Source: Bacteroidaceae bacterium
GTDB lineage: Bacteria; Bacteroidota; Bacteroidia; Bacteroidales; Bacteroidaceae
Direction: 5' to 3'
Assembly: GCA_045659645.1 (NCBI GenBank)
Contig: JAZRCG010000010.1
Span: 57,391-121,390, forward strand
DNA: 64,000 nucleotides
In this document: positions 30,590 through 62,867 of the stretch, one piece after another
Layout of the letters: each line of letters opens with the position of its first letter
Numbering within the stretch: the stretch's first letter is position 1
Notes under the pieces: model-generated
The model's database searches: none
Told to the model about the DNA's origin: nothing
What the model saw: only the letters and a program-made list of their open reading frames with translations
Position numbers and translations under genes: made by a program

Positions 30590-30769
30590 ATGAAAAAGAC
30601 ATATATCGCTCCCTCAGTGGAGGTAATAAAGGTTGGTGCCATCAGCATGCTGGCAGCAAGCATGGGAATTAACGATACCACAGAAGTTGACACCAGTGTA
30701 GAAGGTGGTCAGCTTGGCCGTGAGGACAACACCCCTCATTCTCCCAACCTGTGGGAACAGGGCTGGTAA
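30590..30769 (+). CDS. Unannotated 59-aa small ORF (hypothetical peptide)
   Basis: Shorter than any ORF in the track. MKKTYIAPSVEVIKVGAISMLAASMGINDTTEVDTSVEGGQLGREDNTPHSPNLWEQGW starts 22 nt after the upstream stop and is followed by a strong terminator. I recognise no family with certainty. Confidence 0.4.
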   Translation: MKKTYIAPSVEVIKVGAISMLAASMGINDTTEVDTSVEGGQLGREDNTPHSPNLWEQGW

Positions 30770-30869: not shown

Positions 30870-31366
30870 GTGGGGTGTTTGGGCCTCCCGAGGCCGGATC
30901 TTGGTCCTCCCGAGGACCGAGGCGAAAGAACGGGGACCTCTGGGGTCGCCCCTGGGGAGTACGATTTGAGGGGGGCGGAAAAGTGAAAGGTGAAAGGTGA
31001 AAACGGAAAACTATCTACCGTTCACCGCTCACCGCTATCACCCACTTTCTCCCCCTGTCACAGGGGGAGTACCCCGCAGGGGGGAGGGGGTGGATAAACT
31101 CTCTGTGCTCTCTGCGCTCTTTGCGTGAAAAACAAAAACGCTCTTATCTTTATCTCATGCAAAGGGCGCAAAGGACGCAGAGGAACAAAGTGAACGGAAA
31201 ACGGAAAACTGAAAGGTGAAAACTATCCACCCCCTCCGTCGCTTTGCTCCTCGTCCCACCTGTCTCAGGGGGACAAAGTAAACGGGAAACTGGTTCAAGG
31301 CGGAGTGGTGAGTAGTGAGTGGTGAGTAGTGGGGAGTGAGAAATGAGTAGTGAGTAGTGAGTAAAT
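30870..31366. repeat. ~500-bp repeat patchwork with no credible coding
   Basis: Contents: small palindromes GGCCTCCCGAGGCC and GGTCCTCCCGAGGACC; GTGAAAGGTGAAAACGGAAAAC words at 30983-31010 and 31190-31225; an ATCCACCCCC module at 31047-31098 (minus orientation) and 31223-31278 (plus); a CTCTGCG hairpin element at 31101-31182; a GTGAGTA heptamer array at 31296-31366. Confidence 0.8.
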
Positions 31367-31429
31367 GGAGAGGGGAGAAGGGTGGGGAGTTTTGTGGGGG
31401 AAAGGTTTTGGAGTGTGGGAATAAAAGGG

Positions 31430-31437
31430 TATATTTG
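31430..31437 (+). promoter_or_regulatory. Bacteroidota -7 box (TATATTTG)
   Basis: GGGTATATTTGTGG lies 67 nt upstream of the 31504 ATG. Confidence 0.45.
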
Positions 31438-31503
31438 TGGGGAGAATTGGAACTTTCGGGTCCTTTTGGGACGTTAGTGTCTTGGGGCCCGACAAATACA
31501 GAA

Positions 31504-32361
31504 ATGACTATGAACAAAGAGGAACAAAAAGAATTGCTTGACCTGTTGGAGCAGGCTGGGTGGCAACCAATGCCGTGCGATACGCTGGTACCTTGTTTTG
31601 AGAACGAGGTGTTGGCCGGTATCCCTACAATGCCTGGCGATATAGCCTGGGATGAGAATGTAATGATGTCCAGTGAACTTGCAGAACTGGAAAGGGTGTA
31701 CTACGTCAGGGTGAAGGGCGATTCCATGAAGGATGCCGGCATACTGGCAGGCGACAGGGTGCAGCTGTGTATGGACGGTATCTTTGGGGATGGCGACATA
31801 GTGGTGGCTTCCATAGACGGCGAGATGACCCTGAAAACCTTTTATCGCGACGAACAGGGACGCTCGTGGCTTGTGCCTTTCAACGAGAACTATTCCCCCA
31901 TCCTGCTGCAGGAGGATATGGGAGTGAAGATTGTGGGCAAGGTGGATGCCCTGATGCGCAAGACTCCACGCCGTCCGCATGCCGAGGTGGAGCGTATCAT
32001 GCGCAAGGCTCGCGAAGAGGGCGCCATGGCAGAACTGCGAGACCCGGCAGACATCATAGCAGACGTGGCGCCCATGGTAAAGTGCAGGCGCCAGTGGTAT
32101 GCCGTGTACAGGGCATTGGTGGATATGGAACTGATAGGGTGGGAGATGTTTGGCACTTTTGTGGAAATGGTGGCAGAGTCTGTGCCCCAGCATCCTCATC
32201 TGCCATCGCTGGATTCCATGCGCCGCTCTGCCGTGCAGAGCTTCTGCCGCCCCGTGAGCAAGTGGGATGCAAACTATGCTCCGGTGGCAGGAAAGAGATT
32301 TGAGGAGTATGTGAGGATAGCGAAGAGGACGGAGGAAGTGGGAAGAGCTAGGAGGAGCTAG
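31504..32361 (+). CDS. S24 (LexA/UmuD-like) peptidase-domain protein with a ~140-aa C-terminal domain of unknown function
   Basis: Start taken at MTMNKEEQ; upstream codons of the track ORF are heptamer-array sequence. A VLAGIP cleavage-site-like motif is followed by VKGDSMKDAGI (Ser) and DGEMTLKTF (Lys). There is no N-terminal HTH. The stop TAG lies inside the CCTAGG array. Confidence 0.7.
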   Translation: MTMNKEEQKELLDLLEQAGWQPMPCDTLVPCFENEVLAGIPTMPGDIAWDENVMMSSELAELERVYYVRVKGDSMKDAGILAGDRVQLCMDGIFGDGDIVVASIDGEMTLKTFYRDEQGRSWLVPFNENYSPILLQEDMGVKIVGKVDALMRKTPRRPHAEVERIMRKAREEGAMAELRDPADIIADVAPMVKCRRQWYAVYRALVDMELIGWEMFGTFVEMVAESVPQHPHLPSLDSMRRSAVQSFCRPVSKWDANYAPVAGKRFEEYVRIAKRTEEVGRARRS

Positions 32362-33220: not shown

Positions 33221-33344
33221 AAAGGCTGGGATTATTTTGCTTTTCGCTCGCTTAATCGTGCCCTTGAGGCGATGCCTCTAAGGTACTCATGCTTTGAAAA
33301 TCAAAATTAAGTGCACTTTATTTTGAATTTCGCTCGCTTAATCG

Positions 33345-33352
33345 TACCTTTG
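33345..33352 (+). promoter_or_regulatory. Bacteroidota -7 box (TACCTTTG) for proS
   Basis: TTTCGCTCGCTTAATCGTACCTTTGCAAG lies 26 nt upstream of the ATG. A degenerate duplicate of the same 27-mer (…CGTGCCCTTGAGG) lies at 33243-33270. Confidence 0.6.
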
Positions 33353-56331: not shown

Positions 56332-57558
56332 TTAGAAACGAGTGTTAACCCTCGTGTATCCCACAATCCTGTCGTACCTGCCTCCGATTTCCTTATAATA
56401 AATGAATGCCTGGTATTCGTTTTCTGTTTGCCAGAAATCTCCCATTGTGAGCATTGTAGCCCCGTCTTCGGTAATGTACTGGTAATCGTAGTAACCTTGT
56501 TTCATCAGAACTGATGCTTCATAAAGTTCGTACTCATCGTTGTACTGCATTTGATACTCTTCGTTGAATTCTCCGTTGCTCCAGAGGCCATTGACATAGA
56601 CCTTCTGTTGTAGGCGTGGTGATTGAAGGGTGAAATGCACGATGACGTATTCCGATTGTGTGTCGTTGTTTTCCTGATCGTCTGTTCTTGGAAAGAAAGA
56701 ACCATTGCGATCCTCAGTGGTAGTGTAGGTGAGAGGGACTTTATCTTCCCACAATATGGCATGGTGGAATGGTTCGAACCATCTCATTCGGTCTACATTC
56801 ATTCCTGACAGGTTTACATCCAGTATTTCAAACTTATAGTATTCATTGCCGGCAGGGAATATAAGTTTGCTGCAATGCTTCCATTCCAATCCATTGGATT
56901 TGTTTATGTCTGGACGTATTCCTGTTACGGTTCGGGAGGGGCGACGGTTCTGTGTCACTACGGCGCTTATCTGAGTGTATGGGTCGCTGACCCTTATTGC
57001 ACCATAGTTTAGGTTCAGTGCGACTTGTTGATGGGAGTTGTTGAAGTCAATGTCGGTGTTTGAGGATACCTGCATGGAAAGTCCCATAGCTTCCTCTACA
57101 ACATGGAAGCGAACTTCTATCACAGGTCCGTCGTCCATGTTGTCTTCTTCAAAGACAAGTAATTTGTAGTTTCCGCTAACCAAGACATTTGTGTCCCTGT
57201 TTGGGAAGGTCATGGCATAGTGAGTGTAGATCTGTGTGGTGTTGAAACTGTACTCGTAATCCTCTATAGGGCAATCGTTGTTGCCGTGCAGAAAGTCGCT
57301 CTCAAACAGCTCTGTCGTTTCCTCCCATTCTTGATTGCAATGCTGGATGCGATAGATATACCGGTGGTATTCGTGAGACATCTCGTCCCAGGAAATGTTT
57401 AGGTATGATGATTTGCCCAGACTGAGTATAGGGGGAAGGAGCGGGTTGTCATTGAGTGTGACTTGAAGGGTATGTATGTTCTTGTCAAAAACCTGATGCT
57501 GACCATATGTAAGGTTGGTCAGCATACAAGCCATCATGATAGGGAACATACGTTTCAT
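56332..57558 (-). CDS. DUF5103-like secreted beta-rich protein (family reported as the T9SS 'plug' protein)
   Basis: 408 aa with a signal peptide. The pattern NIHTLQV...NDNPLLPPILSLG...L.ISWDEMSHEYHRYIYRIQHCN..W matches my recollection of DUF5103. The family assignment has not been verified. Confidence 0.5.
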   Translation of the reverse strand: MKRMFPIMMACMLTNLTYGQHQVFDKNIHTLQVTLNDNPLLPPILSLGKSSYLNISWDEMSHEYHRYIYRIQHCNQEWEETTELFESDFLHGNNDCPIEDYEYSFNTTQIYTHYAMTFPNRDTNVLVSGNYKLLVFEEDNMDDGPVIEVRFHVVEEAMGLSMQVSSNTDIDFNNSHQQVALNLNYGAIRVSDPYTQISAVVTQNRRPSRTVTGIRPDINKSNGLEWKHCSKLIFPAGNEYYKFEILDVNLSGMNVDRMRWFEPFHHAILWEDKVPLTYTTTEDRNGSFFPRTDDQENNDTQSEYVIVHFTLQSPRLQQKVYVNGLWSNGEFNEEYQMQYNDEYELYEASVLMKQGYYDYQYITEDGATMLTMGDFWQTENEYQAFIYYKEIGGRYDRIVGYTRVNTRF

Positions 57559-57565
57559 AGTGTCG

Positions 57566-58234
57566 CTACTCGCCTTTTACGATGGGTAGATGCCAATGGA
57601 ATTTCACGGCAAAGCATCTTACTGCTATAACCACTATGCTTGAGAACAGTGCACTGATGTTGGGATTGAATTCCAGGAGGTGCAGTGCGGAATATACGAT
57701 GCCGCCTGCTACACATGCCAAGGCATAGATTTCCTTGCGGAAGATCAGAGGGACTTCGTTGATGAGTACGTCACGGATTACACCGCCGGCAGCACCGGTA
57801 ACGGAGCCCATAGTTATGGCCGTCCACATTGGAAATCCCATCTGCAGTGTCTTTTCTATGCCTACGACGTTGAAGAGAGCCAACCCCACGGTGTCAAAGA
57901 TGAACCATGTGTTCTTTTGTTTTACCAGGTATTTGGCAAAGATGTGTACGAACAGAACGGCCAGTGCGCACCAGATGAAATAAATCTCGTTTGTCATCCA
58001 GAATGGATTGACACCCAACATGACATCACGGAATGTACCGCCTCCGATGGCTGTGGCCATACCCACAATCCATGCTCCGAATATGTCAAATTGCTTGGCA
58101 CTGGCCAGGCGTATGCCGGAGAGGGCAAAGGCGAATGTTCCAATGAACTCTATGAAAAGGAATGAGGTTGGAATGCGCAGGGTTTGTGCCAGCAGATTTA
58201 TCCATTCTGCGGCGTCTTGCCATAGTTGTTCCAT
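57566..58234 (-). CDS. Trimeric intracellular cation channel-like membrane protein (UPF0126/YadS family)
   Basis: 222 aa with two UPF0126 repeats (FIGTFAFALSGIRLA...GGGTFRDV and ...VTGAAGGVIRDV). Confidence 0.8.
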   Translation of the reverse strand: MEQLWQDAAEWINLLAQTLRIPTSFLFIEFIGTFAFALSGIRLASAKQFDIFGAWIVGMATAIGGGTFRDVMLGVNPFWMTNEIYFIWCALAVLFVHIFAKYLVKQKNTWFIFDTVGLALFNVVGIEKTLQMGFPMWTAITMGSVTGAAGGVIRDVLINEVPLIFRKEIYALACVAGGIVYSALHLLEFNPNISALFSSIVVIAVRCFAVKFHWHLPIVKGE

Positions 58235-58270: not shown

Positions 58271-58537
58271 TTATTCTGCCAACCCTATTTCTGTCCATTC
58301 AGCCATGATGCGTGCCGCATCGGTGCGTGCAGTGCTTTCCTCCACGTCGTAATTCTCTAACAGGATGGCAGCGAGTGTGTCTGAATCAAATTCCTTGCCA
58401 ACGACAGCTTTCCACATTGTGGCTGCCGATTCGTTCAGGTTGATTACTTTTGAGAAGTCGATATTCTTGTCGCCATGTGCTACGACTATGTGTTCTCCGC
58501 ATACTTCTCGCAGTTCAAAGCCTTCTTTGATTTTCAT
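58271..58537 (-). CDS. PqqD-family (RiPP-recognition-element-like) small protein
   Basis: 88 aa from MKIKEGFELREVCGEHIVV...VINLNESAATMWKAV...LAAILLENYDV....A..D...... The size and the beta-strand/winged-helix pattern are typical of PqqD-like proteins. The upstream 41 codons of the track ORF are discounted. Confidence 0.6.
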   Translation of the reverse strand: MKIKEGFELREVCGEHIVVAHGDKNIDFSKVINLNESAATMWKAVVGKEFDSDTLAAILLENYDVEESTARTDAARIMAEWTEIGLAE

Positions 58538-58562
58538 TGTTGTGTGTGTGTTATATGTTGTA

Positions 58563-59015
58563 TTATATGATTGCTCTGTATATGAATAGCAGGTATCTTC
58601 TAATGGGCAGCAGTTTGTTCCATCGTCTGATGTTCCTGACGAGGTTGGGGTCTGTGGCATGGATGGTTCTGCCTGGCCGGATGTATTGTGTCACCTTGCC
58701 ACAGAGGTCTTTTCTTTGGCATTGTTCGGTGCCTTGGACGTTGCCATCGCCCATCAGGGTTATTGTGTCCAGTTCTGTGTTGCTGGGATGTGGCGTAATG
58801 TCTATTATTCTGTGCAGGACATATTTCCCTGGTGCTATTTCTGCCAATACGGCATCGTATTCTGATGCTCCCACGGGGGTGTCAAGCAGTACTCTGTCTC
58901 GCTGGTGTTCCAGAAATGGCCGCATGCTCCATCCTTTAACCACGATGGTTGCCGTGTGTCCCTCTTTTATGGCATTCCTTACGGCTCCCAGTAGTATGTG
59001 GTTAGGGAGTTCCAT
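58563..59015 (-). CDS. S24/S26-family peptidase-like protein
   Basis: 150 aa from MELPNHILL; alternative starts at 59123 or 59177 would overlap the upstream gene. The Ser motif is KGWSMRPFL. The position normally holding the general-base Lys appears to read VLHRI (His). Confidence 0.55.
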   Translation of the reverse strand: MELPNHILLGAVRNAIKEGHTATIVVKGWSMRPFLEHQRDRVLLDTPVGASEYDAVLAEIAPGKYVLHRIIDITPHPSNTELDTITLMGDGNVQGTEQCQRKDLCGKVTQYIRPGRTIHATDPNLVRNIRRWNKLLPIRRYLLFIYRAII

Positions 59016-59091
59016 GCGTGGCGCTTTGGTTTCTTGTCCGTTTCGGTTTACATAGAGATTGTGTAAGGGATGCAGGATGAACCGCAGCGCT

Positions 59092-59973
59092 TTAAGTATG
59101 AATTTCTTTGCTGATTGTGTCATGGCATAGTATTGCCGCTTCGCTGTTGGGTAGGCATCCAAGTTCCCAGATGCCACATGTCTGTATGAATTTGGTTATG
59201 CTGTCGCATATGCCGTTGTATATCCTTGCGTCCCATTTCATGTTGCTGCATGCGGGCAGTAGCATGACAAATGCTTCCAGAGGTTTGAGCCTGCGTATGG
59301 TGTTCTCTGGGCTTTGCTGTATTCTGACTATTCCTCCGATTGGCGCTTGTATGTTGCGGTAGCATGGTGTCTTTCCGCTCCATGGAGAGCCATAGACGAT
59401 GGGGCTGCCGTCTACGATGCGGATGATGGGGTTGTCATCATTCATCAGGTCGCACCCTGGGATGGTGGTGTACCATAGGTGTGTGTGTGTGCTCTTGCCT
59501 GTGCCACTGGGGGCGGTCATCAGGTAGCCTTTCCCATTGCACCGTATTACGCTGGAGTGTATGAGCACGGTGTCCATGGCAACTGTTGCGAAGGCATAGG
59601 CCATCATCATGCAGTTGTTCAATCCGTAGTGCTGTTGGTTGTGTGTGCCCTCGTGCAGGGTAACGGTGCATTGGCAGAAGTCGGCCGATGTGTGCATTGT
59701 GGCACAGAGGTGTTCGCTGATGTCGTAGATTTTGAACATGTACCCGCCTTCCTTGGTGCGGTACACACCGTGGTTGCTTCCGCCAACGTCGAACTGCCCA
59801 ACTTCCGTGCTGTTTGTTTCTTCTTGTAGATGACTGGTTACCATTACTGTGAGTAGTGGGGGCTGTGAGTTATCGCACAGGAATGGTTCGAAGTTGTGTA
59901 ATAGTGCAGAGTCGGCGTTAATGTCTTGAAAACATATGCTCACTCTATGTCCTGCAATGCTATAGTGTTTCAT
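59092..59973 (-). CDS. HprK-related kinase-like P-loop protein
   Basis: 293 aa from MKHYSIAG. The P-loop LMTAPSGTGKSTHTHLW is followed by NDDNPIIRI.DG, which resembles the C-terminal catalytic half of HPr kinase and HprK-related proteins. The N-terminal half is unrecognised. Confidence 0.5.
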   Translation of the reverse strand: MKHYSIAGHRVSICFQDINADSALLHNFEPFLCDNSQPPLLTVMVTSHLQEETNSTEVGQFDVGGSNHGVYRTKEGGYMFKIYDISEHLCATMHTSADFCQCTVTLHEGTHNQQHYGLNNCMMMAYAFATVAMDTVLIHSSVIRCNGKGYLMTAPSGTGKSTHTHLWYTTIPGCDLMNDDNPIIRIVDGSPIVYGSPWSGKTPCYRNIQAPIGGIVRIQQSPENTIRRLKPLEAFVMLLPACSNMKWDARIYNGICDSITKFIQTCGIWELGCLPNSEAAILCHDTISKEIHT

Positions 59974-60388
59974 GCTCGCTCCATTCTTGTGGTATAAACT
60001 TGAATTCTCCGGCATCCAGACTTTTTAGTCTTGTGGATGGGTCTTTGCTGTGTTTCTTGCGTATATTGACGTACTTTTTCTCCAGCTTGGATTTGTTGGT
60101 ATGGAAAAACACTGCGCATGTGGTGTTGGGTCTGCCTTTGGCATACTCTACCCAGATTTGCAATTGTTGAGAGTATATGCTACGGTCGTAGAGGAAACCG
60201 GTTTTGGTGTCAATGTAGGCTGTATCAAACGTCTGGATGTCGGTCAGATATGTTGTGGAATCGGTTAGGCTGATGCTTATTCCAAAGATGTAGACTTTGC
60301 TTGCTTTTGGTTTTGCTTCTGCCTTTGCTACGCATAGTGTCATCAGAGCTGCAATGGCAAGGATGAGTATGTTGTGTGAGTTCTTCAT
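59960..60388 (-). CDS. Secreted hypothetical protein (142 aa)
   Basis: Start at MKNSHNILILAIAALMTLCVAKA (signal peptide). It overlaps the next gene by 14 nt. I recognise no family. Confidence 0.5.
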   Translation of the reverse strand: MKNSHNILILAIAALMTLCVAKAEAKPKASKVYIFGISISLTDSTTYLTDIQTFDTAYIDTKTGFLYDRSIYSQQLQIWVEYAKGRPNTTCAVFFHTNKSKLEKKYVNIRKKHSKDPSTRLKSLDAGEFKFIPQEWSEHETL

Positions 60389-60410: not shown

Positions 60411-60418
60411 CAAAGATA
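60411..60418 (-). promoter_or_regulatory. Bacteroidota -7 box (TATCTTTG)
   Basis: Minus strand reads TTCGTATCTTTGCATGG, 22 nt upstream of the 60388 ATG. It could drive the whole minus-strand gene string down to 52732. Confidence 0.55.
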
Positions 60419-60785
60419 CGAAGAAGCGAGCGAAATATCAAATTTATTTGGATATTTTCGAGTGTGAGTATTCAAGACGGCAATCTATGGCCGTGAACAA
60501 AGTGATACGAGATGAGAAGAAGAAGAACTCCTGATGGTTTGGAAAAGGGTTGCTGCTTTCAAAATCCGGCATTCCAGTACCGGTTTTAAAAACAGTATTT
60601 CGGTACTGGAGTACCTTCGTGATGGTACTGCAGTCCTCTCGTGTCGGTACTGTAGTACTTCCACGAGAGGACTGCCTTGTCATCACGATGTCCTAACTGA
60701 CTGTTTGCAGCTGGTAGTTTTACGAATCTGGTGGGCTGCTGCTTATAAAGGTTTGCCTTGTGGTAAAACTTAATGTTGTGTAAAA

Positions 60786-62415: not shown

Positions 62416-62831
62416 GAAACAGTGGTTCGGCTTGTCGCTGGTCTTTCTATGAATATGGAAAGACGAGAGGAAAGTCCGGGCAACACAGGACAATCCGCTA
62501 CCTAACGGGTAGGAGTCAGTAATGGCTGGTCAGTGCAGAAGAAAATAACCGCCAGCATCTATGCCGGCAAGGGTGAGAAGGTGGGGCAAGAGCCCACCAG
62601 GCGTATGGCAACATGCGTGCTGTGCACTCCGGATGTTGAAAGTTCGCGTATACCGGCGAGATTCCCGCAACATTAGTGGGGTGGGAGTGTGAGGGCTGTC
62701 CGTCCAAGCTGGAGGGTAGAACGATAGAGGCCGGTGGTGACACCGGCAGTGGATAAATGACAAGCGGCGGAAGGTATCATCTCTTTATGGTCCTGCCGTG
62801 CACAGAACCCGGCTTACAGAGCCTCTGTTTC
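62416..62831 (+). ncRNA. rnpB: RNase P RNA (bacterial type A)
   Basis: The universal GAGGAAAGUCCGGGC is at 62467-62481 and ACAGAACCCGGCUUA at 62802-62816. The 5' GAAACAGUGGUUC pairs with the 3' GAGCCUCUGUUUC (P1). The ends are approximate. Confidence 0.85.
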
Positions 62832-62867
62832 TTCTTTTTTTAGAAAGTGCCTAATAGACATAAGCAT

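Follow-up and report, generated by a model that had tools for sequence, protein, structure and literature searches.

What would bring a kinase-like protein, a peptidase-like protein and a PqqD-like protein together in one short run of genes? The question is raised by a locus in a 64,000-nt stretch of DNA from a Bacteroidaceae bacterium (GenBank assembly GCA_045659645.1, contig JAZRCG010000010.1, positions 57,391 to 121,390 of the forward strand), which we refer to as the window. On its minus strand, at 58271-60388, lie four co-directional genes that overlap or nearly abut, and that are designated g1 to g4 here in the order in which they would be transcribed (Table 1). They encode a secreted protein, a kinase-like P-loop protein, a protein resembling S24/S26 peptidases, and a PqqD-like protein, respectively. 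The original prediction, which was made from the letters of the DNA alone, suggested that the last three form a maturation set for a peptide that is made on ribosomes and modified after translation (RiPP). Our analysis leads to a reading of the same kind, to which we assign a probability of roughly 0.45: by analogy with characterised systems, g2, g3, and g4 would make up a cytoplasmic module in which phosphorylation and leader cleavage are guided by a RiPP recognition element (RRE), and the substrate, a peptide or small protein of ribosomal origin, would have its gene elsewhere.

Conservation of the three genes

Relatives of g2 were collected by a pattern scan in which each species was represented by a single genome, and which returned at least 595 of them. 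The loci surveyed below number 86, and comprise the best 80 of these relatives, taken with 10-kb flanks, together with six metagenomic loci. In iterated searches, g3 adjoined g2 in 84 of the 86 loci and g4 was present in 80, with the missing cases located at contig ends. The order g2-g3-g4 is departed from in L066, where g4 comes before g2, and in L070, L079, and L085, where g3 lies upstream on the opposite strand. Carriers of the trio include Prevotella, Hoylesella, Paraprevotella, Alloprevotella, Palleniella, and Prevotellamassilia, and further Muribaculaceae, Paludibacteraceae, Alistipes, and Bacteroides metagenome-assembled genomes. Adjacency on this scale is far beyond chance.

The first two members of the trio also occur as a single protein. 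When proteins were clustered at 50% identity, nine of the 150 top-ranking representatives were in-frame fusions of g2 to g3, 433-491 aa in length. One fusion cluster has 779 members from many independent assemblies (the 15 listed are all 491 aa), and a second comprises 27 proteins, nearly all 433 aa long. From this we conclude that the fusions are real. In one Paludibacteraceae locus (L078), the fusion partner of the g3 domain is a nucleotidyltransferase rather than g2. The earlier proposal that the three genes are functionally coupled is therefore upheld, both by the order kept across loci and by the natural fusions.

The PqqD-like and kinase-like proteins

The 88-aa g4 protein had been called PqqD-like, and clearly has a bona fide PqqD domain: it matches PF05402 over profile positions 1-66 of 67 with an E-value of 2.8e-12 and 47.2 bits, well clear of the gathering score of 23.4. 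Its matches to two PqqD models of the lasso B1 type are weak (18.9 and 18.5 bits vs. cutoffs of 80 and 70). The PqqD-type domains that have been characterised are all peptide-binding RREs (PMC7533575).

The g2 protein had been described as a 293-aa HPr-kinase-like P-loop protein. It matches HprK_rel_A (TIGR04352) at 5.4e-6 (25.7 bits, cutoff 200) and SynChlorMet ScmC (TIGR04249) at 2.9e-4 (20.3 bits, cutoff 125), and both models are matched, weakly, by 16 of 18 diverse homologues. The HPr kinase/phosphorylase (HprK/P) model TIGR00679 gave 10.8 bits, below threshold (cutoff 240); five of the 18 homologues weakly match Hpr_kinase_C (PF07475; best E-value 0.0059) and eight weakly match the Pfam family PEPCK_ATP. 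The protein as a whole stays below the curated cutoffs of HprK/P, HprK_rel_A, HprK_rel_B, and ScmC. The precomputed Pfam label of its family is PF27840 ("ScmC"), which is marked weak in most loci and is unmarked in the P0216 fusion.

An AlphaFold2 model of g2 (pLDDT 91.5, pTM 0.90) was compared with the PDB using Foldseek. The best matches were ATP-dependent phosphoenolpyruvate carboxykinase (PEPCK; E-value 8e-8, TMq ~0.5 over the whole protein), followed by the catalytic C-domains of HprK/P (E-values 5e-5 to 3e-4), and a profile search against PDB sequences returned just PEPCK at 0.074 and HprK at 1.1. As modelled, the structure of g2 is no further from ATP-PEPCK than from HprK/P; the P-loop and the HprK-type fold of the earlier description are retained, and its HPr-kinase label has to be widened. 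With both enzymes g2 shares the P-loop phosphotransferase fold and the HxS...GxSGxGKS/T arrangement, whereas its identity to them is ~10%, its size is roughly half that of PEPCK, and its context is unrelated to the phosphotransferase system or gluconeogenesis.

Across the 18 homologues (31-52% identity), H139, S156, G157, G159, K160, and S161 are invariant, as are N178, D179, D180, and P182 of the NDDNP motif, and the Walker A residues T158 and T162 together with N181 are conserved in at least 90%. In the lasso-peptide kinases PadeK and ThcoK, a His-Lys-Asp-Asp motif is reported to be essential (PMC9266682), and a D158A/D159A mutant of PsmK is inactive (PMC6993621). Judged by motif context, H139, K160, D179, and D180 of g2 match this motif, and the Asp-Asp pair apparently has its counterparts in the metal-binding or catalytic Asp-Asp of those kinases and in the ADD of HprK. 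Since both the fold and the invariant catalytic residues match, g2 appears to be a phosphotransferase of the HprK/PEPCK class that is capable of catalysis and lies outside every curated family.

The peptidase-like protein

The earlier description of g3 as an S24/S26 peptidase of ~150 aa finds support as to the family and is probably wrong about the size. Close relatives carry the gene as a 186-aa call, with a conserved N-terminal extension. The longer form is therefore the likelier one, and the gene was probably under-called. No Pfam family matched g3 of the window at an E-value of 0.1 or below, and its sole profile match was to sigpep_I_arch (TIGR02228) at 6.5e-4 (19.6 bits vs. a cutoff of 51.85). 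Among 25 homologues of 56-75% identity, 19 match Peptidase_S24 (PF00717; best 2.4e-6) and six match Peptidase_S26 (PF10502; best 7.5e-5); the orthologue in L082 matches sigpep_I_bact, LexA, sigpep_I_arch, and UmuD at ~1e-4 to 1e-3. The g3 profile found no meaningful match among PDB sequences, and profile searches revealed no DNA-binding or other regulatory domain.

The motifs GWSMRPFL, VLHRI, and LMGDGN of g3 contain the residues that are invariant in the family, namely S66 (within G64-x-S66-M67-R68-P69-F70), H104 (VLHR), and D126 (LMGDGN). When aligned by hhalign (80 columns, E-value 0.017), S66, H104, and D126 fall on S44, H83, and D103 of yeast Sec11, an alignment that is indicative only. 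The alignment with LexA, in which S66 falls on the catalytic Ser, covers the region around the Ser only, and stops before H104. This invariant His occupies what we take, from motif context, to be the position of the general-base Lys of S24 and S26A enzymes (TVKRL in LexA). The original suggestion that g3 has a His in place of the Lys, and is of the Ser/His type, agrees with the invariance of H104 and with its alignment to Sec11 H83.

Enzymes of the Ser/His kind form the S26B group of MEROPS, the signal peptidases of endoplasmic reticulum (ER) and archaeal type, which include Sec11, SPC18/21, SipW of Bacillus subtilis, and archaeal signal peptidase I (TIGR02228). Like them, g3 has GxSMxPF, xHR(I/V), and GDxN motifs and a Ser/His(/Asp) rather than a Ser/Lys set; unlike them, it has no membrane anchor, is cytoplasmic to judge by its fusion partners, scores below the TIGR02228 cutoff, and has an extra C-terminal helix. 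This helix, which is basic/aromatic (W..LLP.RRYLL.IY) and Trp/Arg-rich in Prevotella, is conserved at the end of all g3 homologues, fusions included. We know of no such helix in S26B or other S24/S26 enzymes, and it could serve as a docking or membrane-interface element. The motifs support the view that g3 is a divergent, soluble S24/S26 protein, closest to the ER/archaeal S26B Ser/His class. It is predicted to be cytoplasmic because it has neither a transmembrane segment nor a signal peptide (maximum hydrophobicity over 19 residues, KD19, 0.92), and because it is fused in many lineages to the ATP-dependent g2.

A location in the cytoplasm bears directly on one alternative, in which g3 would be a dedicated ER-type signal peptidase that acts on g1 at the membrane, as in the tapA-sipW-tasA operon of B. 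subtilis, with g2 and g4 as accessory proteins. The alignment of its Ser/His/Asp motifs with Sec11, the weak sigpep_I_arch match, the secreted protein encoded in the same operon, and a C-terminal helix that could bind the membrane interface would all suit such a role. However, g3 is naturally fused to g2, an ATP-binding protein of the cytoplasm, and a nucleotidyltransferase is its fusion partner in one lineage, so that its catalytic domain would not be on the side of the membrane where Sec substrates are cleaved. The lack of any membrane segment also speaks against it, as does the retention of g3 where g1 is absent, and we consider this alternative very improbable.

Partner genes in other lineages

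Beyond the trio, the loci differ in what accompanies it. In the 68 loci of Prevotellaceae type, g1 lies directly upstream of g2, often with genes for an rpoD-type sigma factor and htrA before it, and no exporter is found. In the loci of other Bacteroidales g1 is absent, and an ATP-binding cassette (ABC) exporter of 532-549 aa, with a transmembrane and a nucleotide-binding domain (TMD-NBD), directly follows the PqqD gene in 10 surveyed loci as well as in L089-L091. At no locus do g1 and an adjacent ABC exporter occur together. A protein of the NTP_transf_5 family (PF14907) is encoded in L078, L081-L083, L085, and L090/L091, the last two of which carry a compact set consisting of a kinase-peptidase fusion, PqqD, the ABC exporter, and the nucleotidyltransferase. 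Three loci (L049, L057, and L060) contain the trio but lack both g1 and an adjacent exporter. In the window, we found no ABC exporter of this type and no nucleotidyltransferase, and among the conserved neighbours in the 86 loci there was no lasso cyclase, B2 protease, or radical-SAM enzyme. The original statement that cyclase, radical-SAM enzyme, and exporter are all missing consequently holds for the first two; the absence of the exporter is true of the window and is specific to the lineage.

Two observations were made on the surroundings of these loci. In L090 (9269-10861, plus strand) and L091 (6222-7814, plus strand), a 54-aa open reading frame (ORF; MNNYSSSAADKQPYSAPVCETHSICPEGIILSGSGWENGGAGNYNDWSNDLGNF) and a gene for a 471-aa protein, neither with a Pfam family, lie ~2.6 kb downstream of the compact cassette, past an oppositely oriented porin-like gene. 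In many genomes of Prevotella type (L016-L064, e.g. L018 8672-9529; L087 5591-6424), the order is htrA-rpoD-g1-g2-g3-g4, in which rpoD encodes a housekeeping sigma factor of 286 aa and the cassette is directly downstream of it; the window and its closest relatives do not have rpoD there, and htrA and g1 are ~400 nt apart.

Comparison with known systems and proposed function

In lasso-peptide clusters of Firmicutes, an HprK-like kinase places a phosphate on the precursor's C-terminal Ser and the uncharacterised nucleotidyltransferase PsmN adds a hexose to that phosphate, while B1 presents the leader and D is annotated as an ABC-type exporter (PMC6993621, PMC9266682, PMC7533575). The cassette resembles this tailoring set in having a kinase of HprK/PEPCK fold with His-Lys-Asp-Asp and a stand-alone PqqD RRE, and, in its relatives outside the Prevotellaceae only, an enzyme of the NTP_transf_5 family together with an ABC exporter of TMD-NBD type. 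Unlike in the lasso clusters, no cyclase (C), transglutaminase-like B2 protease, or precursor with a C-terminal Ser is found in the neighbourhoods of the cassette, and the cassette has instead an S24/S26 Ser/His peptidase, often fused to the kinase; the form in the window also lacks the nucleotidyltransferase and the exporter. Since cyclase, B2 protease, and precursor are all missing, it is not a lasso cluster. Nonetheless, the exporter and the NTP_transf_5 enzyme of other Bacteroidales strengthen both the RiPP-style reading and the analogy with lasso tailoring.

Other cassettes, defined by bioinformatics, that pair an HprK-related kinase with a PqqD-family protein are HPr-rel-A (TIGR04352), SynChlorMet with ScmC (TIGR04249 / PF27840), and GeoRSP (TIGR04355, TIGR04302), which are likewise uncharacterised, and HPr-rel-A and ScmC are the nearest sequence families of g2. 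The cassette differs from all three in that g2 scores below the equivalog cutoffs (20-26 bits vs. 125-200) and in that it has no radical-SAM/SPASM partners; to our knowledge, neither an S24/S26 partner nor g1 is part of their definitions. Apart from g4, no part of the cassette reaches the cutoff of a curated family, and a search of the literature on PqqD with HPr kinase, on SynChlorMet, and on RREs found no description of it, in agreement with the original view of the combination as uncharacterised. The cassette belongs with the peptide-maturation cassettes that combine an RRE with an HprK-like kinase, from which it is set apart by its soluble Ser/His peptidase and the recurrent fusion of kinase and peptidase, and also by having no precursor nearby and by the exchange, specific to Prevotellaceae, of the exporter for a secreted protein without known fold relatives.

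From family and fold identities, conserved residues, gene order, fusions, and partner genes we infer the activities, the peptide binding, the order of the steps, the substrate, and the product as follows. In a substrate made by ribosomes, g4 would bind a recognition segment. Using ATP, g2 would then phosphorylate a hydroxyl of that substrate, which by analogy with PadeK, ThcoK, and PsmK would be that of a Ser, possibly at the C-terminus. The soluble, S26B-like g3, probably in complex with g2, would remove the recognition or leader segment. In the fuller cassette of other Bacteroidales, the NTP_transf_5 enzyme might decorate the phosphate further and the dedicated ABC exporter might secrete the product, and the Prevotellaceae form, as in the window, would have lost both and gained the translationally coupled, secreted g1. 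The original proposal that an S24/S26 enzyme may act in place of the B2 leader peptidase fits all the data.

A wider picture can be drawn from these steps: an undescribed and very widespread pathway of Bacteroidales in which a soluble ER-type Ser/His/Asp peptidase, coupled to the kinase, would serve as an RRE-guided leader peptidase and release a linear phosphopeptide or small phosphoprotein (which, in lineages with the nucleotidyltransferase, would carry a glycosyl or nucleotidyl group as well) from a precursor encoded elsewhere, and in which the Prevotellaceae would have swapped the ABC exporter for g1. We put this picture forward tentatively, and would sooner expect at least one part of it to fail than all to hold.

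Search for the substrate

If a precursor peptide accompanied the cassette, it should recur among the small ORFs around it. We surveyed ORFs of 12-90 aa (ATG, GTG, or TTG start) within 1.5 kb of the cassette in the 86 loci, and ORFs of 12-110 aa (ATG start) over several kb in 18 distant loci, and found no conserved precursor in either. The conserved small ORFs were g4, its out-of-frame shadows, and short ORFs confined to the three near-identical loci L001-L003. Both surveys agree with the original prediction, which had noted no adjacent precursor ORF.

The absence of a precursor gene, the defining element of a RiPP, from the vicinity of the cassette is the first of several points that weigh against the reading of the trio as an RRE-guided maturation module. 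The window form also has no exporter, and of the RiPP parts only the RRE, the kinase, and the peptidase are present in the window, exporter and nucleotidyltransferase being restricted to relatives outside the Prevotellaceae. Within the Prevotellaceae, the cassette is core-like and sits among housekeeping genes (htrA, rpoD), which is atypical of an accessory natural-product cluster. Finally, the family matches of g2 and g3 are far below curated cutoffs.

Some of these same points favour an alternative in which the trio is a regulatory protein-kinase module. Here g2 would phosphorylate a housekeeping protein, as HprK/P phosphorylates HPr, with g4 as an adaptor, g3 as a regulatory protease or autoprotease, and g1 as a periplasmic effector. 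The place of the cassette immediately after rpoD and htrA in many Prevotella, the lack of a precursor gene (and, in the Prevotellaceae lineage, of an exporter), and the HprK/PEPCK-type fold of g2 are what one would expect of such a module. Yet the characterised PqqD-type domains bind peptides without exception, g3 carries none of the domains expected of a regulator, and the dedicated ABC exporter and PsmN-like nucleotidyltransferase of other lineages point to a modified product that is exported. We judge the regulatory module to be improbable.

The original prediction also named two candidates for the substrate within the window, one of which was a small ORF at 30590-30769. Among 91 other loci, just two, which are closely related (L014 and L010), have homologues of this ORF at a distance from the cassette of 10 kb or less; the ORF is unlinked to the cassette and is not supported as a substrate. 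The ORF belongs, with L014 7266-7448 (plus strand) and L010 9603-9770 (minus strand), to a family of small proteins of 55-60 aa that look precursor-like, with an N-terminus M-K/E-K-x-Y-x-x-P...V..V.....LA.S and a C-terminus W-(D/E)-x-x-W, and that have no NCBIfam family. In the window, it is on the plus strand directly after an ORF of 1076 aa. A 334-aa ORF at 31357-32361 (plus strand) has a Ser/Lys S24 motif of LexA/UmuD type in mid-protein (VKGDSMKDAG...GEMTLKTF) and a long C-terminal extension, and is a second S24-type protein of the window, different from g3.

The secreted protein g1

The second candidate substrate was g1. The protein begins MKNSHNILILAIAALMTLCVAKAEA, with a KD19 of 2.11 in its most hydrophobic stretch and a cleavage-type site at AKA-EA, and continues after the signal peptide with a conserved alpha/beta domain containing the motif VYxFGxSxSFxDSxxYxTxIQ. 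Across homologues, D43 is invariant and S44 nearly so, and the N-termini are ordinary, variable signal peptides of Sec type that are poorly conserved. No Pfam or NCBIfam family was found for g1, and its homologues are all named "hypothetical". Its AlphaFold2 model, built on a shallower alignment without the sequences derived from our loci, has a pLDDT of 84.9 and found no fold match in the PDB (best E-value 0.77). A 286-aa gene that had been grouped with g1 is the rpoD-type sigma factor, and the grouping was an artefact of single-linkage clustering.

These data allow an alternative in which, in the Prevotellaceae, g1 is itself the protein substrate in cis: g4 would bind it, g2 would phosphorylate it (e.g. 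at the D-S of SFxDS), and g3 would process it before or during export. Besides being the sole other gene conserved with the trio, always directly upstream of it, g1 has in the window a stop codon that overlaps the start of g2, excludes the adjacent ABC exporter, and carries the conserved D43 and S44; close to the cassette there is no other candidate. The exclusivity, however, may stem from a single evolutionary event, and the trio occurs without g1 in loci of Muribaculaceae, Paludibacteraceae, Alistipes, and Bacteroides type, so g1 is not the ancestral substrate. Moreover, its variable N-terminus is not a conserved leader for recognition by an RRE, its C-terminus is not Ser, unlike the substrates of the lasso kinases, and it is exported while g2, g3, and g4 are predicted to be cytoplasmic. 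As a universal substrate g1 can thus be set aside, being of Prevotellaceae type only and having ordinary signal peptides, and as a substrate within that group we regard it as unlikely.

Should the reading as an RRE-guided maturation module be correct, RiPP enzymology would gain a new type of leader peptidase that is S26B-like, soluble, and fused to a kinase, and peptide phosphorylation of the HprK type would extend beyond lasso peptides. It would also point to a phosphopeptide or phosphoprotein that is conserved in a dominant group of the microbiome. Few bacteria of the human gut, mouth, and rumen are as abundant as Prevotella and its relatives, whose ribosomal peptide chemistry is very little known; the cassette itself occurs in no fewer than about 600 genomes at species level, and in metagenomic protein clusters that number in the thousands. 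With the compact four-part version in L090/L091, the question lends itself to a direct test by heterologous expression.

Layout of the locus and neighbouring genes

The features of the locus are collected in Table 1. The start of g2 overlaps the stop of g1 by 14 nt, in keeping with the overlap originally noted for the secreted-protein gene; g3 in its 186-aa form overlaps g2 by 32 nt, and 25 nt separate g3 from g4. The peptide motifs quoted in the original prediction (SGTGKST, GWSMRPFL, VLHRI, and NDDNP) are all present where it had placed them. In the genomes compared, its central expectations also came true, the 293-aa protein proving to be HprK-related and the 88-aa protein PqqD-like, with the trio found together in other genomes.

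Table 1. Coordinates of the g1-g4 locus and adjoining features in the window
Feature	Position	Strand	Description	Basis
g1	59960-60388	minus	142 aa, secreted	ORF, hydrophobic N-terminus
g2	59092-59973	minus	293-aa P-loop phosphotransferase of predicted PEPCK/HprK fold, ScmC / HprK-related-kinase-like	profiles, predicted fold
g2 Walker A / P-loop	59488-59508	minus	SGTGKST, residues 156-162	sequence and conservation
g2 NDDNP	59428-59442	minus	residues 178-182	conservation
g3	58563-59123	minus	186-aa S24/S26-clan peptidase-like, Ser/His(/Asp) type, no transmembrane segment	
g3, alternative start 59015	58563-59015	minus	150 aa	
g3 S66	58926-58928	minus	conserved residue	
g3 H104	58812-58814	minus	conserved residue	
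g3 D126	58746-58748	minus	conserved residue	
g3 C-terminal helix	58563-58640	minus		conservation
g4	58271-58537	minus	88-aa PqqD family, RiPP-recognition-element type	PF05402
Promoter motif	60411-60442	minus	TTTG, 20-nt spacer, TATCTTTG	pattern scan
g5	57566-58234	minus	TRIC-like channel, Gly_transporter/UPF0126	Pfam
g6	56332-57558	minus	type IX secretion system (T9SS) plug, T9SS_plug_1st	Pfam

Downstream of g4, after a gap of 36 nt, are genes for a TRIC-like channel (g5) and a T9SS plug (g6), with an overlap between the two that is reported as 9 nt. Their position on the same strand directly after g4, which is shared by the closest relatives, would suit the view that the adjacency of the genes in this region is local synteny only, or that the cassette forms a functional unit with g5 and g6. 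They accompany the cassette, however, in only ~15-18 of the 86 loci, all from close relatives and sometimes inverted, and we found no paper linking PqqD to T9SS. For the core trio, the idea of mere synteny is contradicted by an order kept across families and by the fusions. We find this view scarcely credible, and the link to T9SS through g5 and g6, which is limited to the closest clade and sometimes inverted there, was rejected. In several related rumen genomes (L004 9747-11663, and also L010-L015 and L017), g5 and g6 form a single ORF of 626-643 aa, called as one 638-aa gene with both Pfam domains, which suggests a functional link between the cation-channel-like membrane protein and the T9SS plug.

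A search with PADLOC gave zero matches, and a reading of the locus as anti-phage defence is unsupported. Upstream of g1, the promoter motif ends 22 nt before the start codon. The pattern TTTG-N17-22-TAnnTTTG has eight copies in the window vs. 0.75 expected, this one among them; the TTTG/TATCTTTG-type pattern is the sigma-A consensus of Bacteroidetes, and we take the site to be a putative promoter. The match at 33322-33352 (plus strand) and the one upstream of g1 have almost identical spacers (TTTCGCTCGCTT), which may represent a common regulatory element. In an Rfam search of the window, the ~400-nt gap upstream of g1 had no match. The sole match was the bacterial RNase P RNA of class A (RF00010, 221.5 bits) at 62419-62832 on the plus strand, just upstream of the gene for the htrA-like protease, which is encoded on the opposite strand.

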